A DNA stretch of 64,000 bases from Myxococcota bacterium (GTDB lineage Bacteria; Myxococcota_A; UBA9160; UBA6930): the NCBI GenBank assembly GCA_965223705.1, contig OZ245015.1:1600001-1664000 (forward strand), in the 5' to 3' direction. Positions within the stretch are counted from its first letter, which is position 1. The number at the start of each line of letters is the position of its first letter. The notes under the pieces are model-generated. The model was not told where the DNA came from. It saw only the letters and a list, made by a program, of their open reading frames with translations, and made no database searches. The position numbers and the translations under genes were made by a program. This document shows positions 4,429 to 61,920 of this stretch, one piece after another.

Positions 4429-4450
4429 CTGCTTCAGAAAAGGGAGCCGC

Positions 4451-39210: not shown

Positions 39211-42200
39211 CTATGCGTCGGCCTCCGGGTCAGAACCGAGCACCGAGTCGAGCTGACGTTCCTTGTCTTCCGCGCTCTTGAGGCTCGCCTCGAGTTCGCG
39301 CCGTTGGTCCTCGTTCAACGAAAGCACCGTCAGCGGGTCGGCTCTCTTCCACAGGGGCACGGCCGAGAAGCCGATGGCGGCGAGAGAGCTCGAGCGCATG
39401 ATCACCGACAAGAGGCCCGTCGCGCCCGCAATGGCGAGCGACTGGAACGATCGGTGAACCCACTCGATGTCCGCGCCTTCTTCCTCGAGCTGTCGGGTGA
39501 GCTCGCTCCGCAGGGTCTCGATCGATTCCAAGAAGGCCGGGTGCACGTAGCGCTTGGCCGCCTTGTCGTGTTCTTCTTCGAACACTTGGCTAGTACCACC
39601 CGACGTCCGTTCCGCTTCAACCAAAGTGAGCCCTCGTGTCTCGAAGCGCCCAGAGTCGCTCGCCGCAGCATGGAGCTCCCGTTTCTCACGAACAACTTCG
39701 TTGACCTGACCCAGCGTCAGATGAGCGTCCGCCGTGGAAATACGCTCTTCCTTTTGCGGAGTCGCGACTTTCGTTTCGACTTTGGGTTCGTCGGGTGAGG
39801 GCTCGGCCGACGCTACTTCTTCGGGCTCCGGCGTAGCGACGACTTGCTTGGCCTCGATTTCCACGCGTACAGCGCGGGAGTCGATCGCCCCCGCGGAATC
39901 CTCGGCGGAGATCATCAGATCGAAAGCCGTGCGACCACTGTTGCCGAGGGCGTTCGGATTGGCCACGAAAACGTCACCCGTCGACGGATCGATCGCGAAC
40001 GCTCCATCGACGTTGCCGCCCACGATGGCGTAGACCACCGAATCTCCCGGATCCGGATCGACGGCAACCACTTGACCCACCCACGATCCGGGCCCGGCTC
40101 CCTCACCGACACCGAACGTGTCCGCGTAGAGGACCGGCGCGTCGTTCTGCGGGTTGACGGTGACGTTCACGGTGGTGGTATTGGAAGGCGCGCCCGAAAG
40201 ATCACGGATCGTGTACGTGAAGGAGTCGGCGATCGTCTCGGACCCGTCGTGGGTGTACGTGACGGTACCGTCGCCGTTGACGAGGACGGTTCCGTTCGCC
40301 GGCGCTCCGATAATCTGGATCGATGCGAGATCGAGGGGGTTGTCGGGATCCGTATCGTTCGCGGCGAGGTCGATATTGACGGCCGCTCCTTCGTTGACGA
40401 GCGCCGCATCATCGACGGCCGTGGGGGCGTCGTTTTGGGGCGTTACGGTGACGTTGACCGTGGCCGTGTTCGAGATAGAACCCGAGAGGTCGCGGATCGT
40501 GTACGTGAAGGAATCGCCGGTGGTCTCGGACCCGTCGTGGGTGTAGGTCACCGTACCATCGCCATTGACGACGATCGATCCGTTCGCGGGCGACCCGAGG
40601 ATTTGGATCGACGTGAGGTCGAGGGGATTGTCGGGATCGGTGTCGTTCGCGGCGAGGTCGATGCCGACGGCCGCGCCTTCGTTGACGACGGCAGCGTCGT
40701 CGACCGCAGTCGGTGGATCGTTCTGAGGCGTCACGGCGACGTTCACCGTGGTGTTCGAGATAGCACCCGAGAGATCGCGGATCGTGTACGTGAAGGAATC
40801 CGCGGTGGTCTCGGACCCGTCGTGGGTATAGGTGACCGTGCCGTCGCCATTCACGAGGACGGTTCCGTTCGCGGGCGCCCCAACGATCTGGATCGATGCG
40901 AGATCGAGTGCGTTGTCGGGATCGGTGTCGTTCGCCACGAGATCGATATTGACGGGGGCGCCTTCGTTGACGACCGCGGCATCGTCTACCGCGGTCGGCG
41001 CATCGTTCTGCGGCGTCACGGTGACGTTGACCGTGGCCGTGTTCGAGACGGCACCGGATAGATCGCGGATCGTGTACGTAAACGAGTCCGCGGTGGTTTC
41101 GGATCCGTCATGGGTATAGGTCACCGTACCGTCGCCATTGACGAGGATGGATCCGTTCGCGGGCGCTCCGACAATCTGGACCGACGTGAGGTCGAGGGGG
41201 TTGTCGGGATCGGTGTCGTTCGTCGCGAGGTCGATGTTGACCGCGGCGCCTTCGTCGACCAAAGCCGCGTCGTCTACCGCCGTCGGGGCGTCGTTCTGCG
41301 GGTTGACGGTGACGTTGACCGTGGCCGTGTTGGAGACCGCGCCCGAGAGGTCGCGGATCGTGTACGTGAAGGAATCGCCGGTGGTCTCCGACCCGTCGTG
41401 GGTGTAGGTGACCGTACCGTCGCCATTGACGAGGATGGATCCGTTCGTGGGTGCTCCGACAATCTGGATCGACGTGAGGTCGAGGGGATTGTCGGGATCG
41501 GTGTCGTTCGCGGCGAGGTCGATATTGACGGCCGCTCCTTCGTTGACGAGCGCCGCATCATCGACGGCCGTGGGGGCGTCGTTCTGGGGCGTTACGGTGA
41601 CGTTGACCGTGGCCGTGTTCGAGATAGCACCCGAGAGATCGCGGATCGTGTACGTGAAGGAATCGCCGGTGGTCTCTGATCCATCGTGGGTATAGGTGAC
41701 CGTCCCGTCGCCGTTCACGAGGATCGATCCGTTCGCAGGCGCGCCAACGATCTGGATCGATGTCAGGTCGAGAGGGTTGTCGGGATCGGTGTCGTTTGCG
41801 GCGAGGTCGATGCCCACCGCGGCGCCTTCGTCGACCACCGCCGCATCATTGACCGCGGTCGGCGCATCGTTCTGAGGTGTCACCGTGATGGTGACCGTGG
41901 CGGTATTGGACACAGCACCCGAGAGGTCGCGGATCGTGTATGTGAAGGAGTCCGCGATGGTCTCGGACCCGTCGTGGGTGTAGGTCACCGTACCATCGCC
42001 ATTGACGACGATCGATCCGTTCGCGGGCGCTCCGACAATCTGGACCGACGTGAGGTCGAGGGGGTTGTCGGGATCGGTGTCGTTCGTCGCGAGGTCGATG
42101 TTGACCGCGGCGCCTTCGTCGACTAACGCCGCGTCGTCTACCGCCGTCGGGGCGTCGTTCTGCGGGTTGACGGTGACGTTGACCGTGGCCGTGTTGGAGA

Positions 42201-45200
42201 CCGCGCCCGAGAGGTCGCGGATCGTGTACGTGAAGGAATCGCCGGTGGTCTCTGATCCATCGTGGGTATAGGTGACCGTCCCGTCGCCGTTCACGAGGAT
42301 GGATCCGTTCGCAGGCGCACCAACGATCTGGATCGATGTCAGGTCGAGAGGGTTGTCGGGATCGGTGTCGTTTGCGGCGAGGTCGATGCCCACGGCGGCG
42401 CCTTCGTCGACCACCGCCGCATCATTGACCGCGGTTGGCGCGTCGTTCTGCGGTGTCACCGTGATGGTGACCGTGGCGGTATTGGACACAGCACCCGAGA
42501 GATCGCGAATCGTGTACGTGAAGGAGTCCGCGATGGTCTCGGACCCGTCGTGGGTGTAGGTCACCGTCCCGTCGCCGTTCACGAGGATGGATCCGTTCGC
42601 GGGCGCTCCGACGATCTGGATCGACGTGAGGTCGAGGGGGTTGTCGGGATCGGTGTCGTTCGCGGCGAGGTCGATGCCCACCGCGGCGCCTTCGTCGACC
42701 ACCGCCGCGTCGTTGACCGCGGTCGGCGCATCGTTCTGCGGGTTGACGGTGATGTTCACTGTGGCCGCGTTGGAGACCGCGCCCGAGAGATCGCGAATCG
42801 TGTACGTGAAGGAGTCCGCGGTGGTCTCGGACCCGTCGTGAGTGTAGGTGAGGGTACCGTCGCCATTGTCGACGAGTGAGCCGTTTGCCGGCGCGCCGGT
42901 GACCGTGATCGACGAGAGATCCAAGCCATCGTCCGGATCGGTATCGTTCCCCGCCACGTCAATCACGACGGAGCTACCCTCGTTGACGATCGCCGCATCC
43001 CCGACAGCGGTAGGAGCATCGTTTACAGCGACGACAGACACGATTGTCACGGCAGTGTTGCTCGTGGTGGTCCCGTCATTGACTTCGAAATCGATGTAGC
43101 GGTTCGTCGTGTTCGGTGCTGCCGAGCTGTTGTCGTAGGTAATCGTCCTGAGCACCTGCTGGTAGTTCGCGAGCGAGTCGGTGCCGCTCAGCAGGAGGAT
43201 GCCTGAAACCGCGTTGTAGCTCGCTACGATGCTCGTCCCAGTCGTGTTCGCCGATAGGATCTCGGCGGAACCGTCTTGAAGGTTCGTGATGGTAGCGGTC
43301 AGCCAAGCCAGGTTTGCGCTGTCGACATCACCGATAAACCCGTCGGAGTCGACGACGAGTACGGGGCCGCCACCTTCGGTGAAGGTCGTCGAGAAGTCCT
43401 CACCTACCTCCGAAGAGTCGTCGAAGTCGAGATCGAGAATGGGCGAATCGTCAACGGCGTTGATCGTGAGATTCACCGTCGCGATGTTCGATGAGCTACC
43501 TGAAACGTCATCGATTCGATAGGCGAAGGTGTCGGACACCGTTTCCGAGCCGTCGTGTGTGTAGGTCAGCGTCCCATCGCCGTTATCGATGAGGGTGCCG
43601 TTCGTCGGCGCCGTGGTGATGACGATGGAACCCAGGTCCAAGGCGCTGTCGGGGTCGCTATCGTTTCCCGCGACATCGATGACAACCGACTGTCCTTCGT
43701 TGACAACAGCGGCATCGGCCCCGGCGGTGGGCGCGTCGTTCACCGGATTGACCGTGATACTGACCGTCGCGACGTTGCTGGTGGCGCCCGAGAGATCCTG
43801 AATCGTGTAGGTAAACGTGTCGGTCGTGGTCTCCGACCCGTCGTGGGTGTAGGTGACGGTGCCGTCACCATTCACAAGGATTGAACCGTTTGCAGGCGCC
43901 CCGACGATCTGAATCGACGTGAGGTCGAGCGGGTTGTCGGGATCGGTGTCGTTCGCAGCGAGGTCGATCCCAACGGAAGCGCCTTCGTTCACGGCCGCCG
44001 CATCGTCGACCGCGGTCGGCGCGTCGTTGAGCCCGACGATACGGATCGTGGTGGTCGCGATATTGCTAAGATGGGAGACGATCGGGCCCCCGTCACTCGC
44101 GACGGTCTGGAGAACGCGATCCGTGAGGTCCGGCGACGCCGACGCGTTGTGGTACGTCACGGTCTCCAACACGGCTTGGTAGTTCGCCAGGGTGTCCGAG
44201 CCCGAAAGAGTCAGGAGTCCCGTTCCAGAATCGTAGGAAGCCGAAATCGCGGTCCCGGTGACGTCGGCAGAGAGGCTCTCCGAGGCGCCGTCGAGCAGGT
44301 TCGTGATCAAGACCGTCATCGACGCGAGGTTGGCGTGGTCGGAATCGCTGATGACGACGTCGCCGTCCGAGATCAATACCGGACCCCCGCCTTCGAAGAA
44401 CGTCGTCTCGAAATCGGAGCCGGGGGTTCCCGAGCTATCGTCGGCATCGAGGTCGATGAACGGGCTGTCATTCTGCGGGGTTACGGAGACGCTCACCGTG
44501 GCGGTGTTGGAGACCGCACCACTCGCGTCTCGAATCCTGTACGTGAACGAATCGGTCGTGGTCTCGGACCCGTCGTGGGTGTAGTCGACGGTGCCGTCAC
44601 CGTTCACGACGAGAGACCCGTTCGAGGGAGCACCGACGATCTCGATGGACGTCGGGTCGACGCCGTCGTCGGGATCCGTGTCGTTCGCAGCGAGGTCGAT
44701 CGTCGTGGTTCCCCCTTCGAGAACCGCCGCCGCGTCGGCCGCCGCGGTCGGAGCGTCGTTCACGTTCGTGAACGTGATCGCCGCCGCCTCTGGTCCGTCC
44801 GACAGGGAGCCATCTGAGACCGTCACCGCGTAGCTCGGTGCCGCTTCGCCGCCGTCGTGCACGAATTGGATGTCGCCATCCAGCACTTGCTGCTGGGTGA
44901 AGGTCGTGATCGCGACGCCCGGGTTCGCCACCGCCTCGAACCGGCCGCCGGAGACGGAGGAGACCGTAAATTCGAGTAGCCCCGCCGCCGTCTCAACATC
45001 GCTCGCCGAGACGTTCGAGGCGGAGAGGACCACCGTTGCCCCTTCGCTGATCACGAGCGCGTTGTTGCCGAGCAGCGGGGCATCGTTCTCCGCAGTGACG
45101 TCGATCCGGAGGGTCTCCGTCAGGGAGTCCGAGCCGCCGTTCGCGGTTCCACCCGAGTCGGTGACGCGGAAAGAGAAGAACGAGAAGCTTCCGCTCTCGT

Positions 45201-48200
45201 TGGGTGCCGGCTGGAACTGCATACCCTGGATCTGCGCGAGCGAGTACGTGCCCGTCGTGACCTGGGTGGTGTCGTCCGCGAGGTAGATGGTCCCGAAATA
45301 GACCGGATCCGGCACGACGGTCACTTCATACGTAAGGGTCTGGCCACTCTCATCCGAGCCGCCTCCCGCACCGTAGGCAAGGGCGCCCAGACCAAGCGAG
45401 GTCAAGCCCGAGTCCTCGGCAACGACGAGGTTGTTGACGGAACCCGCCGTGCGGACCGGGGCGTCGTTCACGGGATCCACCTGGATCACGAGGACGTCGA
45501 CGTCTTCTTCGCTCGAAGCGTCTCCACTCACGCCGGGATCGATTCCCGAGTTACCGAGATCGTTCGTCGCGATCATCAGATTCACGTTGCCGGTAAAGTC
45601 GGCGGTCGTGTCGAAGGTCAACGTGGCAAGGGCGGCATTGAGTTCGGCGATCGTGCCGGTGAACACCATGTTGGCGTCACTCGTTCCGTCCCCCGCCGAG
45701 AAGGAGAGGCCGGTGGTGCTCCCGAGGCTGAGTAGACCTCCCACACCGACGTTCAGCTGAACGCGCAACGTATCGGTCGGCAGCGCGTCGACGTCCCCGA
45801 CCTGCAGCGAGTCGCCCCCGGTGAAGGCGAGGGTTCCATCCTCGAGGACCGACACCGTGCTCGGTGCGGTATTCACCGGAGCGTCGTTGACCGCCGTCAG
45901 CTGGATCTGCTTCGTCGCCGTAGGACCGCTATCGATGCCGTCATCGAACGTGAAGGACACCGTACGAATGAGCTCGCTTGGGGCGTCGGACCCGTTGTAG
46001 AACGTGACGCTGCGGAGCGCCGCCTCGAAATCGGCCACACTCGCCGTCTGCCCCGCGCGTACCGACAGCACCAAGCGGTCACCGAAGTCCGTAGCGACAA
46101 TCGTCGTGGTGTCGGTGAACCCGAGCGTGTCGTCCGCGCTGTAGTTACCCGTGATCTGAACGACCGCAGTGTAGAGGTTGCTCGGGTCGACGCCTTGAGC
46201 GCCGTCGGGATCGACGAGGGTGAGGCCGGAGTCGATCGCGACCGCTGCCTGTTGCTCGGTGTAAGTGGTCGCGCCCGCGGTCGTCGTGATGACATTGACG
46301 TCGTTGTCACTCATGACGGTAACAGACGTCGTGGCGACGGGACTGTCGTCGCTACCGTCGTTCGCCACAAAGGTGATGACGCGCGTTGTCTCGTCCGGGG
46401 TCTCGGACGTGGAATCGTAAGTGACCGTTCGCAGGACCTGCTGGTAGTTCGCAACGGAATCCGATCCCGAAAGGAGCAGCGTTCCCGTACCCGGGTTGTA
46501 GCTCGCGAGAATCGAGGTTCCGGTGGTGTCGGCGGAGAGCAATTCCGCCGAACCGTCGAGCAGGTTCGCGATCGTCACGGCGAGCGAGGTCAGGTTCGAG
46601 CTGTCGACGTCACTGAGTGTTGCATCAGCGTCCACGATAGCCACCGGTCCGTTGCTTTCGGTCCAGCTCGTCGCAAAGTCAACACCCGCCGCTGCGGAAT
46701 CGTCCGCATCCAAGTCGAGGGCCGGCGCATCGTTTACCGGGTTCACCGCGATGGCAACCGTGCCACTCCCGACGTCATCGCCCGCATAGATGGCGGCGAT
46801 CTCATCGGCGGACAGCGCCTGGGTGTAGATCCGTGCGTCGTCCACCATGCCGAGTAGATCGAAGCTGCTGTCGGTAACATCGGCGTGGGTGCCGATGGTC
46901 GATTGCGGGAACCAACCGGTCCAAGTAATCGACGATGCGTAGCTGGCCGTGGCGACGACCTGTCCGTCGATATAGAGCGTCTGCGTGTCGTTGGCATCAT
47001 CGAAGCTGAAGGCCACATGGTGCCATTCACCGGCATTCATCGTCGTGCCACTTCCGATGAACTGGTGGGTCGAACCGTCGTAGAAGAAGGCGCTGACGCC
47101 CTCGCTCCAGTCGTTGATGCGGATGGCTACGTCATTGCCCAGAGAGATCAACTCGCCGCCATTCACTGCGGTGCTAGAAAAGTTGACCCAGGCCGCCAGC
47201 GTGACATCCGCCGGCTGCCCGTACAGGTCGTCGATGCGGACGTATTCTCCCGCCGCATCCAGCTGTAGCACTTCGCCGCGGTCGACATCCGCGGTGGTAT
47301 CGGCTCCGCCAACCAGCACGGCAGGTTGTGCGGTCCCGGCAGACTGGTCGGCAGCGGAACCGCCGGTAAACGTGTAGTGCCCCTGCAAGTCCGCGGCCAG
47401 CGCGGTGGTCATGTTCAGCGTTACCGCGCCGTTGTAGCCGGCATCCGGAGTAAAGGTCATGCCCTCCAGCGCGGCGTTGAGTGCCGACTCGGTGCCATTG
47501 ACGACAAAAGAGCCGGTGCCGTCACTGCCTTCGACGAAGTTCAGACCGGTCGTCTGCGCAAGCGTCAGCACGCCGTTGTCGACCGACAGGTTCACCTGAA
47601 ACTCCGTATTCGCGGTGATTACCGAGTCATCAACGGTCACGGCGTTGCCGTTGCCGCTGCTGAAAGTCAGGATCTGATTCTCGTCCACCGATTGCGGCCC
47701 TGGAAGCGACTGGCTGGCTTCGAGCGCGTTGTCGACCGAGATCGACATTACTTCGCTGTAGGAATGTCCGGCGGCGTCGGTGACCTCGACCGTGACGTCG
47801 TGAGAGGTCGCCGCTTCGTAGTCGAGCTGCGAGGCGTCGGCGACGGTAATCGCGCCCGTACTGCCGTCGATGGCGAAACGGCCATTGGCGTCATCCGTCA
47901 GACTGAATGCGTAGTTGCTGAGAACCTGGCTCGCGTCATATTCGATGATGTAAGGGCGAACGCCGATGCCTTCAGCGTCTGCCCATTGTCCGCTCGCGAC
48001 AAGCATGCGCGCAACATCCTCGTCGCCACCGCCCCCGGCGTCCACGCTCGGCTCGCCCACGAACCAGTTGACGTATTGTCCACTCACCGCGGTGCCGCCC
48101 GAATCGCCACTCCAGAAGGCTTCGTTTTCTTGTGCTCCCGAAAGCCAGCGCCAGTCACCCTCCGTGCTTTGGTCGGCCGCGCCGAGCCAGATATCCGCAC

Positions 48201-51200
48201 CGATCGTTTGCGCGAGGTCGTGAACGACCTCGTTCTCATACGCGGAATCGATAGTGACCAGCTGGCCAGAAATGCCATTCAACGTCGAGGTTGTCGCGAC
48301 ATAGAGTGCCGTCGACCAGTTGGCCTGCGTCGTCGCGACCTGATAGAACTTGCCGGTGGCCGCGTCGTAAGAGAGCGTCGGATCGTTGTTCAGGATCGTA
48401 CTGATCGCTAGCGGGACTTCGATGACCTGAACGTCGGCGATGAGCGGGCCGTAGCTGTTGGCGCCGTCCATCGAGGCGAATGTCAGCTCGGTGGCAGTTG
48501 AATCTGCCGTAAACGTGAAGGAGCGATGCTCCCACAACAGATTGGTGGTCGACCAATCGCCGGGTTGGGAGATCTGGAAATCCTGAGATTCGCCATTCGC
48601 TGCAGCTCTCAGGTCCTTGACGGCATCGCCACCACTCCAGTCCCCGCTGAGAGCAAAGACGACCTGGTACTGTCGGCCGACTTCAGTCGCCAACGTCTGC
48701 TCGATCACCCCGGCGGTCGAACCATTGAGGTCAATTGTATTGCCACCAAGCAGCGAGCTCTCGAGGGTGTTTCCCGCCACTTCGACGTCGCCGGATTGAA
48801 CCGTCCAAGGGCCGATCGTCGAACCCGCACCCAACAACTGGTATGAAGTGCCTTCGGACAAGAACAGCCCATCGCCGACGATATCCTGCGGCGAATCCGG
48901 ATCGCTCGGCACCACGAAGCCGACGGTCGTTCCGTCAACCGCGTTCTCGCTGACATGCAGGTCTTCAACCGGCGTACTGGCGGTGAAGCCAGCGCCGGCG
49001 GCATGACCGATGCTCAGGTTGTTGCCGCTCACAACATCGACGACCTCGCTCGATCCGTTGAAGCCGTCCATCTGCCAGTTGGCGATCAGGCCGCTGGGCA
49101 GGCTGCCGCTGTCGAGTTTCTGCTGGTGATTGAAGGCGATCTCACCGTGCGAACGGACCTCATTCCACACGCGGACGTCGTAGAGCGTGCCCTGGAACGC
49201 TTGGGTCGACTGGAAACTGCCGCCCAGAGCATCCTGTTCGTTGCCGATGATCAGAGTGCCGCCGGGATCGATCGTGTTCCCGATCTCGATGCCGGTACCG
49301 CTTTCGATCAATTCGCCGTTGCTGTAGACGGCCCAGCTCCCTGAGCTGTTTTCCCATGTCACCGCGAGGTGCTGAACACTGCCATCGCGCAAGGTGTTGT
49401 AGTCGATACTGGTCAGGTGAATATCGGTATCGGCTATGTAGAGGTAGGCGTCGTTGCCAGCGAAGACAAACACGAATTCGTTGTCGTTGGTCGCAGTTGC
49501 ATACGAGACCAACGGCGTGAAGGAGCTCGTGTCCGAGGTCGCGAACTGAATCTCGTAGGTCAGCGAAGACAAGCCGCCGAGAAGTATCCCGCCATCGTTC
49601 GCGACCAGGTAGGCATCATTCCCGCCGTCGGTGTTGAGCTCGATGCCGCTCGAGAGATCGGTCGGCGCGTTGTTGTCTTCAACGAGGTCGCGAAGCGAGA
49701 TAGTGAAGGCTTCGTCGTAGGCGTTGCCGTCGACATCGGTGGTACGAATCGTGACGGTGTGCGTCGCATCCGTTTCGTAGTCGAGCAGCGTGCCGTCCGC
49801 TACGCGAATCGTACCGCTGTTTCCGTCGATCTCAAACGCACCGGCCACCGTTTGCGACTGAATGGAGTAAGTGAGCGCTTGAGTTCCATCGAGAACGGCC
49901 TCAGCATCCCATTCGATGATGTAGGCGAAGTTGACATTGTCGCGATTATCCTCCCAGGTTCCGTCGGAGAGCATGTAAGCGGCGTCCTCGCCGAGACCGT
50001 TGTCGTTGGGGGCGGTCGCGGACTTCCAGTTCGAGTAGGTACCGTCGACCGACGAGCCGGTGACTGCACCGAGCCAGAAGTGGTCGCCAGCCGTGGCGCC
50101 CTCGTACCAACGCCACTCGCCCTCGACGTCGATGTCGGCGGCACCCAGCCATGTGTTCGCGCCGCCGATGACCGAGTTGAGTTGGATGTCGTTGACGACT
50201 TCGTTCTCGTGGGCCGAGCGAATCGTCACAAGCTGGCCGCTGACGCCGCCCAGCGTCGTGCCCGTCGCCGCGGACTGGGCGGTCAGCCAGGTCGTCGTGC
50301 TGCCGACCGCCTTGTAGAACTTCGCAGTGTGAGCGTCGTAGTAGAGATCCGGGTCCGCGGCGAGGAGGGCTGCGATTTGGGCGTCGCGCTCCGCATCGGT
50401 GCCCGATACTGTACCGACGACGGTCCCGTTCAGGGCGTTCTCTTCGACCGTCAGGCTCAACTGCGGTGAGCTGGAGGTGAATCCCCCGCCGGCGGCATGC
50501 GCGACCGTCAGGTTGTTGCCGCTGACCGATTCGGTGATCACCCCGTCGCCAGAGAGCTTGTCGAACTGCCAGTTGGCGATCAAGCCGCTTTCGTCGTGGG
50601 GAACGGTGCTGTTGTAGCGGGTGGCGATCTCGGCGGCGGTGCGCACATCATCGAAAAGGCGCACATCGTACAAAGTGCCCTCGAGAAACTCGGTCGAGGA
50701 ATAGCCGCCGCCGACCGTATCCTGATCCTGCCCAACGACGAGTGTCCCCCCGGCCGCAAGGGCCTGTGAGGCTGCCAGCCCCGTTCCGCTGTCGACGGAC
50801 ACCCCATCGACATACACCTCCCAAGCGCCGCCGCTTGCATCCCATGTCACCGACAGGGTGTGCGGCTCGCCGTCGGCGAGGCTGTGATAGTTGAAGGCGG
50901 ATGACTGTACGGTCTGATTGGCGACTTCGATCAGGAGGTTCTGATTGGTGAACACGGACAGGCGAACAGAATCGTCGCCGTCGGCGGCCATGTAGGAAAG
51001 CAGCTCGTGATTGTGGGAGGTGTCGCTATAGCTGAATCGGACCTCATATGTGAACTGGGTGGCCCCTCCCAGAATCGCTCCGCCGTCGTCTGCGATCAGG
51101 TGGGCGTCACTGCCGCCGTCCTCGTTCAGGCTTAGCCCGCCCGTCTCGGTGGCCGTGACCGTCAGATCCGAAGGCGCTGCGGGATCGACGGTGACCGTAA

Positions 51201-53466: not shown

Positions 53467-53489
53467 GGGACGGACTCCAATCACACTGC

Positions 53490-53649: not shown

Positions 53650-55395
53650 ATGACCGAAGCGATGACGCGCGCGTTCGACACGTGGCTTGCCGCCTTGTGC
53701 TCGGGGAGGTCCGGTGCACAGGCGACGCTGTGGCAGGCGAAGGCCGAGGGCGCTCTCGATCCGCTTGCACACCGGGGGGCGGAAGAGGGCACCCTCGAGC
53801 GGCACCGAATTCCGGCACAGACCGCGGCCGGGGCCGGCCGGCCGGTGATTCAAGCCGGGGACAACGCCGATTTGTTGGCCGCTGCGCACGGCGATTTCGT
53901 CGTGGTCCTCGAGCAATCGTCGACGTCGCCGCGCGAACAAGAAACCGCGCTTCGCGAGCTCGAGTCCGCGGTGCGTTGGTTGGTGTGGTCACGCAATCAC
54001 ACGCAGACGCCAGGCGCCGCCAAGCCCGACGAAGCTGACTTGCCAGAACTCGTCGACTTCGTGGCGCTGGCCCTCGAGCCGCAACCCGCCAAGGCCACAG
54101 CGCTCGCCCTCAGTACCGAGCTGGCGTCACATCTGTCGGCCGACCGCGTGAGTGTCGGGTACCGAGAAGCGCAGACGGTCAGCTTGCGCGCCGTCTCCCA
54201 CAGCCCCGCCGTCGATGCGCGCTCGGATCTCGTCCGCTCGATCGTGCAAGCGATGGAAGAAGCGATCGAGCAAGACGCCGTCATTCAGTGGCCGTCGCCG
54301 GAAGATTCCGGGCTGGCGCTCGGGGCGCATCGAGAACTGGCGAAGCGGCACGGCGCGGCGGCGGCCTGGTCCTATCCCTTGCGCCATGGCGATGAGATCA
54401 TCGGCGCTCTGTGCGTTGAGTTTCGCTCGCGCGGTCACGGTACGGAAGAGCGGCGCGCCTTCCTCGGTCGGCTGACGCCTCTCCTCGCGCCGATCCTCGA
54501 CCTCCGCGAGCGCGACGACGCGGGCGTTTGGAAGCGGGCGCGAATTCTCCTCGAAGAGGATCTCCCGCGCGCCCTCGGTTGGGAGCGCCTGCAGGCACGC
54601 TTCGCCTTCGCCGCGGTGGCCGCACTCCTCTTGCTCCTCGGCGTGATTCCGGGCACCCAGCGCGTGGCAGCGCCGGCAGAGCTCGAAGGGGTCGTCCAGC
54701 GCGCGATCGTGTCGCCGATGCCGGCCTTCGTGGCAGAGAGCCGCCGACGCGCTGGCGACACCGTACGCAGCGGCGAGGTGTTGGGTGTTCTCGACGACGC
54801 CGAGCTCCTTCTAGAACAACGCAAATGGAACGCGAAGCGCGAGCAGCGCTGGAAGGAGCTTCGCGCGGCGATGGCCACCGAGGATCGTGCGAACGTTCGC
54901 ATCCTGCGGGCGCAAGTCGATCAGGCCGACGCGGAGCTCGAGCTCGTCACCGAGCAACTCAAGCGGACCCGACTCGTCGCTCCCTTCGACGGCATCATCA
55001 CCCAGGGCGATCTGTCGCAGTCGCTCGGCTCACCCGTCGATCGCGGCGAAGTCTTGTTCGAAGTCGCGCCTCTCGATGACTTTCGGGTGATCGTCGAAGT
55101 GGACGACCGCGATATTTCTCAGATCGAAATCGGGCAAGCCGGGGCGCTGACCTTGGCATCGCTGCCCGGAGAACCGCGCGCTTTCCGGGTCGAGCGCGTA
55201 ACGCCCATCTCGACGGCGGAAGACGGCAGAAACTATTTCCGCGTGGAAGGGGCGCTGACAGAGGCATCGACGGAGCTTCGACCCGGGATGGACGGCGTCG
55301 CAAAGATCGACGTCGGGCGCCGCAGCTTGCTCTTCCTGCTCACGCATTCGGCCATCGATTGGGTCCAACTCAAGTGGTGGGCTTGGGTGCCCTGA
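53650..55395 (+). CDS. GAF-domain-containing HlyD-family membrane fusion protein
   Basis: Cytoplasmic GAF-like region (ADRVSVG, AMEEAIEQDAVI, IIGALCVE), one TM, then an MFP (RAGDTVRSGEVLGVLDD, coiled coil, LVAPFDGII, LRPGMDG). Confidence 0.85.
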   Translation: MTEAMTRAFDTWLAALCSGRSGAQATLWQAKAEGALDPLAHRGAEEGTLERHRIPAQTAAGAGRPVIQAGDNADLLAAAHGDFVVVLEQSSTSPREQETALRELESAVRWLVWSRNHTQTPGAAKPDEADLPELVDFVALALEPQPAKATALALSTELASHLSADRVSVGYREAQTVSLRAVSHSPAVDARSDLVRSIVQAMEEAIEQDAVIQWPSPEDSGLALGAHRELAKRHGAAAAWSYPLRHGDEIIGALCVEFRSRGHGTEERRAFLGRLTPLLAPILDLRERDDAGVWKRARILLEEDLPRALGWERLQARFAFAAVAALLLLLGVIPGTQRVAAPAELEGVVQRAIVSPMPAFVAESRRRAGDTVRSGEVLGVLDDAELLLEQRKWNAKREQRWKELRAAMATEDRANVRILRAQVDQADAELELVTEQLKRTRLVAPFDGIITQGDLSQSLGSPVDRGEVLFEVAPLDDFRVIVEVDDRDISQIEIGQAGALTLASLPGEPRAFRVERVTPISTAEDGRNYFRVEGALTEASTELRPGMDGVAKIDVGRRSLLFLLTHSAIDWVQLKWWAWVP

Positions 55396-57536
55396 TGTCG
55401 GAACGGTTGTTCAGCTCCTATTGGTATCGCGTGGCGGAGCTCCGGCCGCGGCTCCGCGACCACGTCCGGATTCACCGACACGTCTACCGAGGCGAGCGCT
55501 GGTTTGTCTTGGACAACCCGGCGGGCGGGACGCAGTACCGGTTCGGGCGAGCGGCGAACTTCGTGGTAGAGCGCCTCGACGGGTCGCGAACCGTCAACGA
55601 ACTGTGGAATCTGGCGCTCGAGCATCTCGGGGATGAGGCGCCGAACCAGAACGCGATGATCACCTTGCTGGCGGAGCTCGACGCGGCCGATGCGATGGTG
55701 TCGAACGTCACGCCGGATACCAAGGCGATGTTCGAGCGCCATGCGCACCAAGAAAAACGCCGCAAGTCGAGCCGCTTCACGAACCCCTTGTATTTGAAGT
55801 TCCCGCTCTGGGATCCCGACCCGTGGCTCGATCGTTGGTTCCCCCGGGTTCGTTTTCTCTTCACGCGAAAGGTCGCGGCCGCTTGGCTCGTGCTCGTCGC
55901 ATGGGCAGCGTTTGAAGCTCTCCGAAACGCCTCGGAACTGGCCGCCTACGGTCAGCGCGCGCTGGGAGAGCCCAGCACCTGGTTTTTGGTCGTTCTTCTC
56001 TATCCCTTCGTCAAAGCGCTCCACGAGTTGGGCCACGCCTTCGCCGCGAAACACTGGGGAGCCCCGGTTCGAGAGATCGGCGTGATGTTCATCATTGGCA
56101 TGCCCGTCCCGTACGTCGACGCGTCCGCCACTTCGGCCTTTCCGAGCAAGTTCTCCCGCATGGTGGTCGCCGCGGCCGGCATCCTGGTCGAGCTCGCGCT
56201 GGCAAGCCTGGCGTTGCTCGCGTTCTTATCGATCGCGCCGGGCGTCCTGAAGCTCGCCGCGTTCAACGTGCTCGCGATCGGCGGTATTTCGACGGTGCTC
56301 TTCAACGGCAATCCGCTGATTCGTTTCGACGGCTACTACGTCCTGTCGGACGCGATCGAAGTGCCGAACCTCGCCGCCCGCGCGAGTCGTTTCCTCCGCT
56401 ACCTCGGTGAGACGCACATCTTGGGGCTTCCCGAGCGACGCGGTTCCGAGACCGACGCCCGGGTTCGCTGTTGGTTGTTCCTCTACGGCGCATGCGCGTT
56501 CGTCTACCGGATTTTCCTATCGTTGACGATCGCGCTCTTCGTCGCGGGGAAGTTCTTCACACTCGGGATCCTGCTAGCGGTGTGGTCGCTGCTCCTCCAG
56601 TTCGGCTTGCCGGTGCTGCGAGGGCTCGCACGGCTGCGGCTCGATCCTCGCGTCGGTGAGCGCCCGTTGCGCGTCGTCGCCGGTGCGGTCTGCGCGGCCA
56701 CGCTGACGACGCTCCTCGCGTTCGGTTTGCCGCTGCCGCTCTGGACGGTTTCGGACGGCGTCGTCTGGCTGCCCGAGCGATCACAGATTCGGACGGGCGC
56801 CGCCGGCATGGTGACGGCGATTCTCGCGACGCCGGGCGCGCGGGTCGCAGCTGGCGAGCCCCTCCTCGAAGTTCGCGACCCGATCTTGGCGGCGAAGGTC
56901 CGCGTGCTCGAAGCACGGGTGCGCGAAGCGACCGCGCGTATGGAATCCCAGGGCTACGAGGATCGCGTCGCGGGTGAGCTCGCGCGCACGGAATTGGGGT
57001 CGGTGAGAGCGGAGCTCAAGCGCGCCAAGCAGGAGCTGGGGGAAGAGGTCGTACGAGCGGGCGTCGCAGGTCAGTTCGTTTTGCCCCGAGCGGAAGATCT
57101 GGTCGGGCGCTATTTCGAAAAAGGCGCGGTCGTCGGTTACCTCAAGGTGGGAGGCGTGAGCACGCTGCGGGTCGTGGTTCGCCAACGCGACGTCGCCTGG
57201 GTACGCAATCAGACCGAACGGGTGAAGGTACGGCTGCCGGGTCGCGCTCCGGTGGAAGCGATCCTGGGCCGGGAAGTTCCCCAAGCAACCGCTCGCCTTC
57301 CGAGCTTGGCACTCGGCACCGTGGGAGGCGGAACCGTCGCGATCGATCACCGCGACGCCGAAGGCCTCACGGCGACCGAAGCGTTTTTTCAGTTCGACGT
57401 GCTCCTGCCGCCGAATACGGTGCCCCCCGGACTCGGTCTGCGGGCGAACGTTCGTTTCGACCACGGGCTCGAGCCGATCGGCTACCGGATGCTCCGGGCG
57501 ACGCGCCGTCTGTTTCTCCGGCGACTCCATGTCTGA
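55395..57536 (+). CDS. Fusion protein: PqqD/RRE-like N-terminus, M50 (site-2) zinc metalloprotease, and HlyD/lipoyl-like adaptor C-terminus
   Basis: ATG 55395 forms a TGATG overlap with the upstream gene. HELGH and NGNPLIRFDGYY metal-ligand motifs lie in a multi-TM region. N-terminal LDGSRTVNEL winged-helix-like motif; C-terminal PGARVAAGEPLL followed by a coiled coil. Confidence 0.85.
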   Translation: MSERLFSSYWYRVAELRPRLRDHVRIHRHVYRGERWFVLDNPAGGTQYRFGRAANFVVERLDGSRTVNELWNLALEHLGDEAPNQNAMITLLAELDAADAMVSNVTPDTKAMFERHAHQEKRRKSSRFTNPLYLKFPLWDPDPWLDRWFPRVRFLFTRKVAAAWLVLVAWAAFEALRNASELAAYGQRALGEPSTWFLVVLLYPFVKALHELGHAFAAKHWGAPVREIGVMFIIGMPVPYVDASATSAFPSKFSRMVVAAAGILVELALASLALLAFLSIAPGVLKLAAFNVLAIGGISTVLFNGNPLIRFDGYYVLSDAIEVPNLAARASRFLRYLGETHILGLPERRGSETDARVRCWLFLYGACAFVYRIFLSLTIALFVAGKFFTLGILLAVWSLLLQFGLPVLRGLARLRLDPRVGERPLRVVAGAVCAATLTTLLAFGLPLPLWTVSDGVVWLPERSQIRTGAAGMVTAILATPGARVAAGEPLLEVRDPILAAKVRVLEARVREATARMESQGYEDRVAGELARTELGSVRAELKRAKQELGEEVVRAGVAGQFVLPRAEDLVGRYFEKGAVVGYLKVGGVSTLRVVVRQRDVAWVRNQTERVKVRLPGRAPVEAILGREVPQATARLPSLALGTVGGGTVAIDHRDAEGLTATEAFFQFDVLLPPNTVPPGLGLRANVRFDHGLEPIGYRMLRATRRLFLRRLHV

Positions 57537-59496
57537 AAAGCTGCGTCCGAGCGTGCTCGCGGGGAGCTACCCTGAGAAGCTCGATCCGATGCGGCCGCGC
57601 CTCGAACGCTGGCTCAGCAAGGCGAGTGAGCGCCGCAAGCGACCGAGCCTCGCCAACCTGGAGGCCTTCGCACAACGCATTGTCAGGCGATCGGACGAAC
57701 TCCGATCCGTGTCGGCCGACGAGCTGCGTCAGCGGGCGGACGCGCTCCGTCCGAGCCTGCGGCGGGCGCTCGCGGGACCGCCGCTACTCGAAGCCTTGGC
57801 CATCGTCCGAGAGCAGTCGCGGCGCCACCTGGGGATGGCGCACTTCGAGGTCCAGATCATGGCCGGCTGTGCGCTCCTCCGCGGGATGCTCGTCGAGCTC
57901 GACACGGGAGAAGGCAAGACGCTCTCGGGGACGCTTCCCGCCGCGGTTGCCGCACTGGCGGGCATTCCGGTGCATGTGGTGACGGTGAACGATTACCTGG
58001 TCGAACGGGACGCCGAAGCCATGGCGCCGCTCTTCCAAGCACTCGGCCTTTCGACGGGCCGGGTCATCGAGGACGAGCCCGATCCCGCTGCGCGCCGCGC
58101 CGCGTACGCTTCGGACATCACGTACGTTTCGAACAAGCAGGTCGCTTTCGATTATTTGCGGGACCGCATTTCCCTCGGCGGACGCGGCGGGGAAATCCGC
58201 GGGGAGGTGCAGCGGTTCGCGCACGCGGCGGAGGCACCGCTTCTTCGCGGGCTCTGTTTCGCGATCCTCGACGAGGCCGACAGCGTGCTGGTCGACGAAG
58301 CACGCACGCCTCTCATCTTGTCTCGCACGGTGCCGTCGCCGGGCCTCGCAGAGATCGCGCACGATGCGTTGTCGATCGCTCGGGAGCTCGACGAAAAGGA
58401 AGACCTCCGCTGGCGACACCCCGCGGCACCCATCGAAGTCACGGCTTCGGGACAGGAAAAAATCATCGAGCGCTGCGAGGGCCGCGGCGGAGTGTGGAAC
58501 GCGCCGGCTCGGCGGGCCGAGCTCTTGCGCGTCGCACTAGATGCACTCTACCGCTACAAGCGCGACGAGCACTACATCGTGCGCGACGGGCAGGTGGAAA
58601 TCGTCGACCCCCAGACCGGGCGGTCGATGCCGGATCGCTCGTGGGAGGGCGGCCTCCAACAAATGGTCGAGCTGAAAGAAGGGTGCGAGCTGTCGGGCGA
58701 TCGCGAGACCCTGGCGCGCATGAGCTACCAACAATTCTATCGGCGGTATCTCCGTCTCTCCGGCATGACGGGCACCGGCCGGGAAGTGAGGCGCGAGATC
58801 GAAGCCGTCTACGACATGCCGATGATTCGGATCCCGCCTCGTCGGCCGTCGAAGCGAATCGATCTCGGAGTCCACGTAATGCCGACGGTCGAGTCGAAAT
58901 GGAATGCGGCCGTCGACCGGATCACGGAGCTCCACCGCTCGGGGCGCCCCGTTTTGGTGGGCACGGCGAGCGTCAAGACGAGTGAGCTCTTGAGCGAAAG
59001 GCTCGATCGGGCCGGTCTGACCCACCGCCTTCTCAACGCCCGGCAAGATCACGCCGAGGCGGAGATCATCGGCGAAGCGGGCTTTCCGGGACGCATCACG
59101 CTTGCGACCGCGATGGCCGGGCGGGGCTCCGACATTCGGGTAGAAGGGCGCGAGGAGGAGCTCGGCGGCCTCCATGTGATTTCCGTCGAGCGCGCGGATT
59201 CGGGTCGCGTCGATCGACAGCTCTACGGACGCTGCGGTCGGCAGGGAGACGCGGGATCCTTCGAACAGATCGTGTCCCTCGAGGACGAACTCGTTCGCAA
59301 CGAAGCGACCGGGAGAGTGCGTCGCCTCGTGGTCGCCTTCCTCCGCCGCCTGGGCGGCGGTTCATTCGTGGGGCGGCTTTTGTTCCAGAACCTTCAACGT
59401 CGAGTCGAACGCCGGCATGCGCGCGAGAGGCGCGCCGTCATGCGGCAAGACGAGCAGTTCGCTCGACTGTTGTCGTTCTCCGGCACAGCGGAATAG
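57529..59496 (+). CDS. secA: Accessory (secondary) SecA-like ATPase, C-terminally truncated (655 aa)
   Basis: Motifs ELDTGEGKT, VHVVTVNDYL, FDYLRD, DEADSVLVDEARTPLI, SGMTGT, GRPVLVGT, AGRGSDI, QLYGRCGRQGD, SLED. Ends about 70 aa after SLED. Confidence 0.93.
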   Translation: MSEKLRPSVLAGSYPEKLDPMRPRLERWLSKASERRKRPSLANLEAFAQRIVRRSDELRSVSADELRQRADALRPSLRRALAGPPLLEALAIVREQSRRHLGMAHFEVQIMAGCALLRGMLVELDTGEGKTLSGTLPAAVAALAGIPVHVVTVNDYLVERDAEAMAPLFQALGLSTGRVIEDEPDPAARRAAYASDITYVSNKQVAFDYLRDRISLGGRGGEIRGEVQRFAHAAEAPLLRGLCFAILDEADSVLVDEARTPLILSRTVPSPGLAEIAHDALSIARELDEKEDLRWRHPAAPIEVTASGQEKIIERCEGRGGVWNAPARRAELLRVALDALYRYKRDEHYIVRDGQVEIVDPQTGRSMPDRSWEGGLQQMVELKEGCELSGDRETLARMSYQQFYRRYLRLSGMTGTGREVRREIEAVYDMPMIRIPPRRPSKRIDLGVHVMPTVESKWNAAVDRITELHRSGRPVLVGTASVKTSELLSERLDRAGLTHRLLNARQDHAEAEIIGEAGFPGRITLATAMAGRGSDIRVEGREEELGGLHVISVERADSGRVDRQLYGRCGRQGDAGSFEQIVSLEDELVRNEATGRVRRLVVAFLRRLGGGSFVGRLLFQNLQRRVERRHARERRAVMRQDEQFARLLSFSGTAE

Positions 59497-59502
59497 AGCT
59501 CG

Positions 59503-61005
59503 CTACGGGGCGGCGTCGGTGTCGATCGCGTCAAACCGGGTGACCTGGTTGCGGCCGCCTTCCTTGGATGCGTAAAGCGCCTGGTCGGCCTGATCGATCA
59601 TCCCGGCCAGGTTCATCGCGCCGTCGCGAACACTCGCGACGCCGAAGCTCGCGGTGACGGGAACCATGGCGAAACCCGGTGATTCGATGTGGCGCCGCAC
59701 GCGGTCGGCGAGATCGAAAGCGTCGTCGTAGCCCGTATCGCCGAGCGCGACACAGAATTCCTCACCGCCGTAGCGACAAACCAGGCCGTGGCCGCCGAGA
59801 TGCAGGCGGAGCGTATCCGCGACCGCGCGGATCACTTCGTCTCCTGTCTGGTGTCCGCAGGTGTCGTTGATGCGTTTGAAGTGATCGATATCGACCATGA
59901 CACAACAGAGATCACCGTCCGACTGTCGCATCGACGCGAAGGTGGGCTCGATCGCTTCCATGAAGCTTCTGCGGTTCGCGACGCCCGTCAGCGGGTCGGA
60001 CTGGGCGAGAACGCGAAGTTCCTCGTTCTGCAACCGAACTTCGTCGCGAGATTTCTCGAGCTCCGTCAGCGCGCGCTCGAGTTCTTTTCTCTGTCGCTCT
60101 CGCTCGGTGACATCGTCGAAGGTCACCACCGCACCCGTGGTCTGGCCCCACCCGTCGAAGACGGGCGCGCCGTTGACCTGCAAGATCATTCGATTCCGCT
60201 TGCTTTGATTCAGGGTGAGGGTGGCTTCGGTGAAGGACTGGCCATCCCGGAGTGATTTCACCCAGGGCAAGTCGCCCTGCGCTTCCGCCCCATCGGCGTC
60301 TCGCCAAGGAAGGGAAGCGGCGTTCTTGCCGAGGAGCGCGGAGACGGGGTAGCCCATACGATCCGCGAACCCCTGGTTCGAGAGGACGATGTCTCCGTCT
60401 TTTGAGAGGATCAAGACGCCTTCCGTCATGATGTCGAGCGTGGCTTTGACCCGGGTCGGTATGACAGAAGACGGATCGAGCTGGCGCAACGTCCGTCGCA
60501 TGTAGAACGTGTAGACGACGAACCCGATTCCACACACGGCGATGACGAGGCGCGCCAGCGGTGATGCCGCGACGCGAGCGTACCAGGGGCGATCCTCGTC
60601 GCCGCGAAAACGCAATTCGAGATCGGCGTAGTGATCGCCCGCGCGGAACACCGGAACACGCACGTGCGTCGTGGTCGAGCGATCCGAATGCTCGGGTCTC
60701 CAGAGCTCTCGGTGATTGCCTTGGTGCGCGAGCAGGCGGCCGTCGCGGGTGCGAACGGCGACCGACAAGAGCGCGGAGTCTCGCGCAAGCGATGCCTTCA
60801 TCACCTCCGTCAACCCGCGAATGTTCGTGTCGTGAAGCGATGCGGTCGTCTGGGCGGCCACCACTTCGGCGAGACTCACGCGGGTGGCCACGAGATCGCG
60901 GTCCTCTTTCGGTACGACGCCTACGAGATCGAGTGAGAGGAGGATCGAGCCCGTGAGCAGTACCAACCCGAGACTGATCCGAAAGGTCGGTCCGAGGGAC
61001 TGCAC
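59503..61005 (-). CDS. Membrane-bound PAS-GGDEF diguanylate cyclase
   Basis: Two TMs flanking a periplasmic domain, PAS domain, coiled coil, DPLTGVANRR, DIDHFKRIND, RYGGEEF, ADQALYASK. Confidence 0.95.
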   Translation of the reverse strand: MQSLGPTFRISLGLVLLTGSILLSLDLVGVVPKEDRDLVATRVSLAEVVAAQTTASLHDTNIRGLTEVMKASLARDSALLSVAVRTRDGRLLAHQGNHRELWRPEHSDRSTTTHVRVPVFRAGDHYADLELRFRGDEDRPWYARVAASPLARLVIAVCGIGFVVYTFYMRRTLRQLDPSSVIPTRVKATLDIMTEGVLILSKDGDIVLSNQGFADRMGYPVSALLGKNAASLPWRDADGAEAQGDLPWVKSLRDGQSFTEATLTLNQSKRNRMILQVNGAPVFDGWGQTTGAVVTFDDVTERERQRKELERALTELEKSRDEVRLQNEELRVLAQSDPLTGVANRRSFMEAIEPTFASMRQSDGDLCCVMVDIDHFKRINDTCGHQTGDEVIRAVADTLRLHLGGHGLVCRYGGEEFCVALGDTGYDDAFDLADRVRRHIESPGFAMVPVTASFGVASVRDGAMNLAGMIDQADQALYASKEGGRNQVTRFDAIDTDAAP

Positions 61006-61008
61006 AGC

Positions 61009-61920
61009 CTAGTCCAGGAGTTCGACGCTGCAGTGGAGGCCGGCCGCGACCTGGCCGTCGGGGTTTGGAAGCTCGAGCCGAACCTTGAACGTGCCACTAG
61101 CCGCGTCGACCACCGGATCGACCCGGTCGACCGTAGCCACGACCCGACTTTCGGCTCCGATCTCGGGCGATAGCGCCGCTCTCCGTCCGGGGCGGATTTC
61201 CCCGAAGCGGTTCGCGGGCAACAGCACGTCGACGTGCAGCGGGTCGATCTTCGCGATCGTGAGGATGGTCGCGCCATCGACAACCTCTCCCGGACTCAGG
61301 TTGCGAGCGACGACGAGTCCATCGATCGGCGACCGCAAGCGGCGGCGTTCGAGTGCGGCCTCAGCTTGCTTGAGTTCGAACCACGCGAGCTCTTGCGCTT
61401 CTTCGGCGCGGCGGAGATCGTGGCGCGCGATTCGCGCTTCGGACTGCATCTCGTCCCATTCCTCCGCCGAAAGCGCTCGACTCTCGAACAGCGTTGCGCC
61501 CCGCTCGGCGCGCCGCTCCTGCAACGCGACTTGTTCCTGCTGAGAAAGAAGCGTGCCCTCGGCTGTAGCGCGGGATTCCGCCGCACGGACCGCTGCCTCC
61601 TCGACGCCCGCTTCGAGCCGAACCACCAGCTCGCCGGCGGACACACGGTCGCCGACTTCGGGTGTCACTTCTTCGATGAGACCGACGGTTTGGCTGCCGA
61701 TGTCGACGAGGTCGGAAGGCTGGATCAGGCAGTCCAAAACGGTGGGATCCGCTCCCGACCGCGTAGCTGCGGCACTCGGCGGACGCTGGGTCGCAACCGC
61801 AGGCAGCGGATCGGGCTCGGCGGCATGCGGAACGGCGGCGCCGCCACCCACCGCGAAGGCAAACGCGACGAGCACCCAGACACTCCGATGTGATTGAAAC
61901 CATCCACCCTGACGGGACAC
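61009..61920 (-). CDS. Efflux/secretion periplasmic adaptor (MFP)
   Basis: GTG 61920 with GGAGG RBS. Motifs VGDRVSAGELVVRL, LRSPIDG, VDPVVDAASGTF. Ends 3 nt upstream of the DGC start. Confidence 0.88.
   Translation of the reverse strand: MSRQGGWFQSHRSVWVLVAFAFAVGGGAAVPHAAEPDPLPAVATQRPPSAAATRSGADPTVLDCLIQPSDLVDIGSQTVGLIEEVTPEVGDRVSAGELVVRLEAGVEEAAVRAAESRATAEGTLLSQQEQVALQERRAERGATLFESRALSAEEWDEMQSEARIARHDLRRAEEAQELAWFELKQAEAALERRRLRSPIDGLVVARNLSPGEVVDGATILTIAKIDPLHVDVLLPANRFGEIRPGRRAALSPEIGAESRVVATVDRVDPVVDAASGTFKVRLELPNPDGQVAAGLHCSVELLD

Follow-up and report, generated by a model that had tools for sequence, protein, structure and literature searches.

In a stretch of 64,000 nucleotides (nt) from a Myxococcota bacterium (GCA_965223705.1, contig OZ245015.1, positions 1,600,001 to 1,664,000; hereafter the window), the gene of a giant adhesin stands divergent from an operon that joins a putative leader-reading protease to membrane-fusion protein (MFP) domains and a shortened SecA. 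We read this locus as a dedicated export and processing machine for giant proteins with an N-terminal LEPR leader, one that works without an ATP-binding cassette (ABC) transporter and ends in a channel of the TolC type, and we place the probability of this reading at roughly 55%; that the module is dedicated to the export of LEPR giants is, taken by itself, highly probable. At issue is the export route of the largest bacterial proteins, the LEPR-XLL giants, at which a 2026 preprint on Chlorobium, in its available text, could only guess (10.64898/2026.03.19.712371). The route would be common, as 77 of the 301 genomes sampled from one large phylum carry the gene for the protease fusion. The reading also names a signal, a receptor and a cut site, all addressable by point mutants. 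If true, it would mean that the leader recognition of peptides that are synthesized on ribosomes and modified post-translationally (RiPPs) has been reused for protein secretion and that a SecA may act away from SecY; a portable 10-residue tag for the one-step export of very large proteins would moreover be useful in engineering. The core module, along with the idea of a SecA motor and an M50 pore, is already in print (Kamneva et al., 2015; PMC4452313, available in part), and the earlier note on this DNA, made by a model from the letters, had cited that source correctly.

The gene set and its link to giant proteins

The presumed cargo is encoded by a single open reading frame (ORF) on the minus strand (39211-53484), 4,757 aa long from a GTG, although an ATG at 53466 with GGAG 8 nt upstream is probably the likelier start and would give 4,751 aa. 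Running away from it on the plus strand are three genes. The first encodes GAF-MFP (53650-55395; 581 aa), composed of a GAF domain, one transmembrane (TM) helix and a periplasmic MFP domain; the second encodes a fusion of 713 aa (55395-57536), here called M50-MFP, in which a RiPP recognition element (RRE; residues 18-104) is followed by a site-2 protease of family M50, a TM helix and an MFP domain; and the third encodes a short SecA paralogue of 655 aa (57529-59496). The first pair of genes overlaps by 1 nt (TGATG) and the second by 8 nt. Converging on the operon from the minus strand are the genes of a small third MFP (61009-61920; 303 aa) and of a two-TM sensor with PAS and GGDEF domains (59503-61005), a diguanylate cyclase (DGC) whose N-terminal sensor family recurs at loci of the same subtype. 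Every element that the earlier note had listed, including a TolC-family gene that starts at 39155, 55 nt below the adhesin stop, is present in the sequence.

This arrangement is found well beyond the window. Among 80 loci retrieved with an M50-MFP alignment, which are the best 80 of at least 594 confirmed matches, 77 encode GAF-MFP and 73 a short SecA; the third MFP is present in 59 of them and a giant or its leader in 51, a figure that becomes 31 of 35 when loci of at least 19 kb are considered. When genomes were searched for 50 of these loci, the leader was present in 40 of 49 genomes, and 21 of the 62 leader matches head ORFs of 4,601-13,738 aa that end 1.6-5.8 kb from the M50 gene, these 21 having been chosen by coordinates fitting the locus with the same contig assumed. 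An ABC-like ORF appears in only five of the 80 loci, in each case of 227-511 aa, and no ABC exporter recurs. SapC is encoded within or beside the operon in 13 loci (L009, L013, L021, L045, L056, L079 and others), a position that suggests a chaperone role for the exporter; a cluster represented by DUF3467 occurs in 12, and one TolC cluster has six members. Neither SapC nor DUF3467 was found when looked for in the genome of the window. Beside the module in four loci (L012, L020, L033, L050) stand a radical-SAM protein and an unannotated protein of about 290 aa, accompanied in three by a methyltransferase, a set that might modify cargo.

Sampling by genome leads to the same association. Across 151 genomes of the bacterium's own phylum, a full M50-MFP of the window's close clade occurs in nine, with weak partial matches in three more; the leader profile matches seven genomes, all among those nine, the other two show the motif on direct reading, and short SecA is present in all nine. 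In the second sample, the 301 genomes of the phylum to which genome G028 belongs, 31 of the 77 genomes with M50-MFP hold the close clade (at least 500 bits) and 46 hold only a distant, sister clade. Two leader types were counted, LExLEPRxLLS and the variant LEPRx[ML]FDG. A leader of either type is found in 64 of the 77 genomes with M50-MFP against 2 of the 224 without (both borderline matches), in a sample whose runs of related genomes make the counts overstate independence and from seven genomes of which the FDG profile was itself built. The LLS type was found in 23 of the 31 close-clade genomes and in 0 of the other 270. The co-occurrence of the module with giant leader-bearing proteins, which the earlier note had made a test of its proposal, therefore holds across phyla; the gene set is real and its link to giant proteins is strong. 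Some genomes (G233, G253, G321, G333 and others) carry four or five leader-bearing giants, many on contigs other than that of M50-MFP, and such cargo may be served in trans.

Probable leader recognition by the RRE-M50 fusion

The N-termini of the cargoes share the motif phi-E-x-[LM]-E-P-R-x-L-L-S, and their C-termini have no general common signal. In the window, the motif reads LEALEPRILLS (adhesin residues 29-39; 53368-53400, minus strand), and the LEPR-XLL family (NF012209) scores 21.6 bits on the adhesin and 29.4 bits on a second giant of the same genome, against a cut-off of 17. Four positions of the leader alignment, E29, E32, R34 and S38 in alignment numbering, are invariant in 24 of 24 rows. 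The presumed reader of this motif is a protein that joins an RRE, an intact site-2 protease and an MFP in one chain. In its AlphaFold model (mean pLDDT 84.7), residues 18-104 match RREs solved with leader bound (5v1u, Z 10.1, rmsd 2.7 over 83 aligned residues; 6jx3, Z 9.6), residues 191-323 match RseP (Z 9.6) and SpoIVFB (Z 9.3), and the MFP part is MexA-like (Z 13.4). The M50 centre is made up of H210-E211-H214 and N304-x-N-P-x4-D312-G, and both HExxH and NxNPxxxxDG are invariant in 46 alignment rows.

The best NCBIfam match of the fusion is the daptide leader peptidase (NF041824, E 7e-43), at 147.1 bits against a cut-off of 300. According to the available text of two preprints, daptide precursors carry the motif ELExMEAP, the RRE of MpaB requires Leu(-7) and Met(-4) for recognition, and the products are cut after this motif (10.1101/2023.03.08.531785; 10.1101/2025.07.11.664356). 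The RLEALEPR of the adhesin aligns with this leader residue for residue, the two key hydrophobic positions matching, so that the predicted cut would fall after R35 and before I36. Like the module's fusion, the daptide enzyme MpaP/DapP places an RRE N-terminal to a site-2 protease with HExxH and an NPDG-type motif (10.1101/2023.03.08.531785, available text); the module's protein differs in being fused to an MFP, in its score, and in the giant size of its presumed substrate. A complex prediction for residues 1-345 of the fusion, zinc and the 40-residue leader gave a weak score of 0.54, against 0.00 for the best control, with contact agreement of at least 64% and partner pLDDT of at least 49; among reference pairs, 116 of 157 solved ones and 2 of 215 mismatched ones attain the mark that it passed, but only 18 of the 157, and both mismatches, do so with a score of 0.60 or less. 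Taken together, it is fairly likely that the RRE reads the leader, and the odds that the M50 centre cuts it are slightly better than even. The combination of an RRE, an intact site-2 protease centre and a RiPP-like cargo leader, which was absent from the earlier note, suggests how the cargo is recognised.

Since RRE-M50 fusions are RiPP leader peptidases, the module might instead make or export a small RiPP-like peptide, with the giant gene a chance neighbour. We regard this as very improbable: the leader-like motif sits on the giant ORFs themselves and their co-occurrence with the module largely refutes it, none of the daptide-type modifying enzyme families is recurrent among the 80 loci (the radical-SAM set being confined to four), and the NF041824 score lies far under its cut-off. 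No daptide enzyme was found among 35 scanned ORFs of the window, in a scan that did not cover short Thr-ended precursor ORFs.

The leader of the second giant (L002:12261-12440) also resembles the "Planctomycete extracellular" motif PF07595 at E 0.006, below the cut-off, hinting that PF07595 and the LEPR leader may be one signal.

The short SecA and loci without it

The short SecA retains both nucleotide-binding domains and the PPXD and ends at the start of the scaffold helix. It lacks the wing domain, the two-helix finger and the C-tail and gives no SecA_SW match; the wing domain and the two-helix finger are the parts of SecA that act on SecY. A housekeeping SecA of 928 aa is encoded elsewhere in the genome, as the earlier note had anticipated. 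Taken strictly, the model of that note, which shares its motor and pore with the available text of Kamneva et al. (2015), has the short SecA stand in for the ABC ATPase as an obligatory motor, the helices of M50 form the pore, and the adjacent TolC serve as exit. Several observations favour such a motor. All SecA ATPase motifs are conserved across 40 aligned short paralogues, the gene overlaps that of M50-MFP and accompanies it in most of the 80 loci, and an extra SecA, sometimes as fragments, is present in 29 of the 31 close-clade genomes; a SecA without the finger that pushes on SecY needs another partner, and this one could well be essential where it is present.

The distant clade nonetheless does without it. 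Of the 46 genomes that hold this clade only, 44 were tested, and all 44 carry the housekeeping SecA alone. The 14 distant-clade loci that were fetched contain no SecA and no linked ABC exporter (one partial ABC fragment lies on the opposite strand at an edge), and all 14 encode an MFP with a GAF-like N-terminal part together with M50-MFP; a giant gene is on inspection in view in 13, a TolC of the type found at the second locus of the window's genome (described below) lies within 20 kb in 8, and the leader is the LEPRx[ML]FDG variant. In a tree of 102 M50-MFP sequences (FastTree, midpoint-rooted), the SecA-less distant clade has a support of 1.0. Nine further SecA-less loci branch within the SecA-bearing part of the tree, and six of these form a group with the window's own M50-MFP (0.94). 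Among five close-clade genomes with no SecA at the locus, two carry a short SecA elsewhere and three drafts show none; G021 likewise has its short SecA away from the locus, and supply in trans is thus real. Genome G454 encodes GAF-MFP, M50-MFP, an MFP, a giant and a DGC; a short SecA is absent both from this locus and from the rest of its genome.

Being powered by SecA, which the earlier note had made the defining trait, is accordingly not supported as what defines these systems, and a short SecA serving as the obligatory motor of the whole family appears unlikely. It looks instead like an optional add-on. It may fairly be taken for an accessory motor that serves very long cargo: among genomes with a short SecA, 9 of 21 have leader frames of more than 7,500 aa, against 0 of 31 among those without.

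Possible routes across the cell envelope

The genome is 95% complete, and the model of type I ABC exporters (TIGR01842) gives 57 matches in it, none above the cut-off and none inside the window; for the four ABC exporters that come closest, the best-scoring assignment is MsbA or MsbA-like. Canonical HlyD (TIGR01843) is likewise not matched above cut-off, the module's three MFP domains, which have a MexA/MacA-like fold, all falling below it. SecY is single-copy and encoded outside the window. The earlier note was therefore right that the window holds neither an ABC transporter nor a secY paralogue, and no dedicated ABC exporter scores above cut-off anywhere in the genome.

A second complete copy of the module (C1:1,199,700-1,220,200) has its own LEPR/DUF4347 giant, a hybrid kinase with the sensor domain of the DGC, an EAL-GGDEF response regulator and a divergent TolC. 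Each of the genome's two modules is thus paired with one of its two LEPRxLL giants, and no further leader-bearing giant was found in it. In the assembly, two frames share the second giant (L002:5396-12440). Relative to it, short-read contigs lack 730 bases in three runs (two samples) and have 6 extra bases in three runs, differences that by arithmetic would give one frame, and the split is probably an assembly error in a repeat. The TolC of this second locus belongs to the family of the SecA-less clade's channels; compared with 20 channels from related loci, it has 29-40% identity to 8. Against those 20 channels, the TolC beside the adhesin (36774-39155, minus strand) scores at most 48 bits, and it heads an efflux operon of its own (TolC-MFP-AcrB), being coupled by ATGA overlaps to an MFP adaptor (35677-36777) and then to an AcrB-type resistance-nodulation-division (RND) permease (32624-35680), which together occupy 32624-36777 on the minus strand. 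Moreover, in the same-family relative G171, which has the same layout, no TolC or RND match was found in the 12 kb after the giant. For these reasons we reject the adjacent TolC as the system's channel, although the earlier note had counted it with the system and the model of an obligatory SecA motor uses it as the exit; it probably stands outside the system, and the TolC-family protein of the second locus is most likely the channel here. We regard that model as a whole as unlikely. What stands of the earlier interpretation is the co-occurrence of the module with giants and the lack of an ABC exporter; SecA as its defining motor and the adjacent TolC are not supported. At its N-terminus, the adjacent TolC also carries some 330 additional aa that match no Pfam family, fused to the RND-pump channel.

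The cargo itself constrains the route. The best 19-residue hydropathy window starting within residues 1-62 of the adhesin reaches 0.87, hence there is no signal-peptide core, and the count of GGxGxD motifs is zero; on both points the earlier note was correct. The protein contains DUF4347, laminin-G, C-type lectin, cadherin-like and Ig repeat domains, including 13 copies of an Ig/cadherin-like repeat of about 96 aa (about 288 nt; 40135-44803, minus strand) that would form an extender stalk. DUF4347 (52729-53238, minus strand) has a His-Gly and a Cys that are invariant in 22 alignment rows (H143 and C186 in the adhesin), and the dyad is present in 28 of 30 matches, one of the misses being cut by a contig end. 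The predicted model of the domain (pLDDT 81) matches Tce1 (Z 13.2), SAVED-CHAT (Z 9.5, rmsd 3.5, 140 aligned) and clostripain (Z 8.0), and because of this dyad and fold we regard it as a putative clan-CD (caspase/CHAT-like) cysteine protease, perhaps self-processing; its profile found, among the sequences of solved structures, only Tce1 (E 0.007) and spurious de novo barrels. As an export tag DUF4347 was rejected, several cargoes lacking it, and it is less specific to the module than the leader (8 of 224 module-negative genomes against 2 of 224).

At the other end of the adhesin lies a hydrophobic motif (..R.ssL.a..s..PlW...DPl..L; 39349-39450, minus strand), preceded by a charged linker of about 130 aa and matched at E 2.6e-16 by a profile from other loci. 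The motif occurs in seven distinct loci, the window included, and all seven have the two-TM sensor gene; neither motif nor sensor gene was seen beside the RTX-rich giants with captured C-termini. Searched in the ESM Atlas, the C-terminal 230 aa retrieved nothing but unnamed clusters, and their value of 0.79 falls short of the reliable range. We rejected a universal C-terminal secretion signal, as none is found among the captured cargo C-termini and the hydrophobic motif is limited to one subtype. We infer that the segment is an inner-membrane anchor, its linker threaded through the conduit, which would fit export with the N-terminus first.

From these elements the following sequence of events may be proposed. 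The cytoplasmic RRE would bind the phi-E-x-L-E-P-R leader and the M50 centre would cut after the Arg (LEALEPR|ILLS), after which the unfolded chain would be fed, N-terminus first, into a conduit built from the three MFP types and a channel of the TolC family, most likely the one that the second locus supplies here. In one clade, the short SecA would clamp the chain through its PPXD and ratchet it with ATP, mattering most for the longest cargoes, while sister systems would manage without SecA. In the window's subtype, the C-terminal hydrophobic segment would stay in the inner membrane, coupled to the two-TM DGC, and the DUF4347 protease may trim the N-terminus further. Pushed to its limit, the proposal describes a separate class of secretion system, in which a RiPP leader-reading protease fused to a TolC adaptor threads the largest bacterial proteins known (up to about 19,000 aa in our sample and 36,800 aa in Chlorobium) N-terminus first across both membranes without ABC or SecY, a stripped SecA is recruited as a processive motor for the longest cargoes, the C-terminal anchor reports surface contact to the DGC, and the leader may equal the PF07595 motif. 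This fuller version we hold only tentatively, at somewhat less than even odds.

Two other routes need to be considered. In the first, the RRE-M50 protein reads and cuts the leader, the chain crosses through SecYEG with the housekeeping or the short SecA, and a ring of MFPs hands it to TolC. Such a route would account for the SecA-less systems, a housekeeping SecA being present in every tested genome, and would need no new pore, and Chlorobium giants are reported in the available preprint text to be periplasmic in the absence of the partner cell (10.64898/2026.03.19.712371). It is difficult to square with a cargo that lacks a hydrophobic signal core and with a short SecA from which the two parts that act on SecY, wing domain and two-helix finger, are missing. 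Entry from the periplasm into an MFP-TolC conduit is established for small molecules and is not known for 400-kDa chains, and overall we think the two-step route improbable.

In the second, the module processes, retains or senses the adhesin, M50 cutting the leader or the C-terminal anchor for release or for signalling through the DGC, and an unlinked canonical type I secretion system (T1SS) exports the protein C-terminus first with the N-terminus as a retention plug. Many cargoes do have internal GGxGxD repeats, DUF4347, as a folded domain, might serve as such a plug and is found in some module-negative genomes, the anchor motif and the sensor gene co-occur, and the Chlorobium authors, in the text available, favour C-first export (10.64898/2026.03.19.712371). 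Yet no type I ABC exporter or HlyD lies above cut-off in the genome, where the closest ABC proteins are MsbA or MsbA-like, the adhesin of the window has no RTX motif, cargo C-termini are unconserved, and three MFP domains with a recurring TolC would make little sense without transport. This possibility seems to us more doubtful still.

Against our own reading of a dedicated, ABC-less export machine there are several points to set. Export, leader binding, cleavage and the energy source are what we infer from the genes, and the SecA-less clade has no evident source of energy; the overall difference in cargo length with and without the short SecA is not significant (Mann-Whitney p 0.06), in genomes that are fragmented and from kin that are not independent. 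We know of no site-2 protease that forms a translocation channel, which leaves the inner-membrane path unexplained. No leader was matched in 13 of the 77 M50-positive genomes, beyond the relatedness within that sample and the origin of the FDG profile noted above; the score of the leader complex falls in a weak band, and solved RRE-leader complexes may have been memorised. An outer-membrane channel is encoded near only some loci, and the C-terminal segment of the adhesin is no more than marginally hydrophobic (1.58). Finally, the Chlorobium authors, in the available text, report periplasmic retention and propose a sap-like, C-terminus-first T1SS (10.64898/2026.03.19.712371).

Among described systems, the window locus is a member of the module of Kamneva et al. 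(2015; PMC4452313). In the available part of that paper, the secondary SecA_DEAD locus has a short SecA without wing-scaffold (here 655 aa, no SecA_SW) besides the canonical SecA, with M50-HlyD, GAF-HlyD and small HlyD neighbours, sometimes OEP and SapC, and no ABC; the paper remarks on the absent ABC transporter and puts forward SecA as the ATPase, with M50 as the pore. Methylobacterium extorquens AM1 and Ruegeria pomeroyi DSS-3 are among the organisms in its S2 Table. The same part differs from the present account in that a cargo, an RRE, a leader and a SecA-less clade go unnamed there, and none of its five clusters of neighbours includes a giant. In Chlorobium chlorochromatii, which is listed in the S13 figure of that paper, the LEPRxLL giants Cag_663 and Cag_665 reach the partner cell, are flanked by sapC and tolC and have a horizontally acquired secA in their expression cluster, with a protein length of 36,800 residues given (10.64898/2026.03.19.712371, available text). 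These features resemble the module, although the term "M50" was not found in the main text of the preprint as available.

In its working, the locus is like a T1SS with leader handling in the style of a peptidase-containing ABC transporter (PCAT), and it belongs to neither of these nor to the accessory Sec systems. With the T1SS of giant RTX adhesins (HlyB-HlyD-TolC; LapBCE/LapA), it shares MFPs, a giant repetitive cargo without signal peptide and a c-di-GMP gene nearby, and it would share a conduit of MFP and TolC, for which the candidate channel is that of the second locus. It differs in having no ABC transporter of the HlyB/PrtD/LssB type, in the presence of three distinct MFPs, of which two are fusions with other domains, and in a conserved signal that is N-terminal, where T1SS cargo has an uncleaved C-terminal signal with RTX repeats upstream; the putative anchor, in turn, is C-terminal. 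In PCAT/SunT exporters, an N-terminal double-glycine leader is read and removed by a C39 protease within the inner-membrane exporter. The module offers a working analogy in that an N-terminal leader would be handled by a protease built into an inner-membrane exporter, but it has an RRE and an M50 zinc protease in place of C39, no ABC domain, a conserved motif that is not double-glycine and whose predicted binding is weak, and cargo of thousands of residues. The accessory SecA2/SecY2 systems of Gram-positive bacteria similarly place a SecA paralogue beside a giant adhesin gene; here there is no SecY paralogue, the SecA is truncated before the domains that engage SecY, and the context is that of diderm MFP and TolC proteins.

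Our literature search, which covered few subscription journals, found no paper that links the leader to an RRE or tests the module. A multi-repeat adhesin of Pectobacterium was rejected as a characterised example, the available text of PMC6963963 tying it to a T1SS and LapG and nothing in it to the module; the available parts of PMC10868602, PMC13723633 and PMC6963963 added nothing on the export route.

Two further features of the window may be noted. A HAMP hybrid histidine kinase gene (61986-64000) is divergent from the third MFP and extends past the window edge, and at the opposite end (1424-8889) there is a chemosensory cluster of CheA, a methyl-accepting chemotaxis protein with a Cache domain, CheB and CheR.

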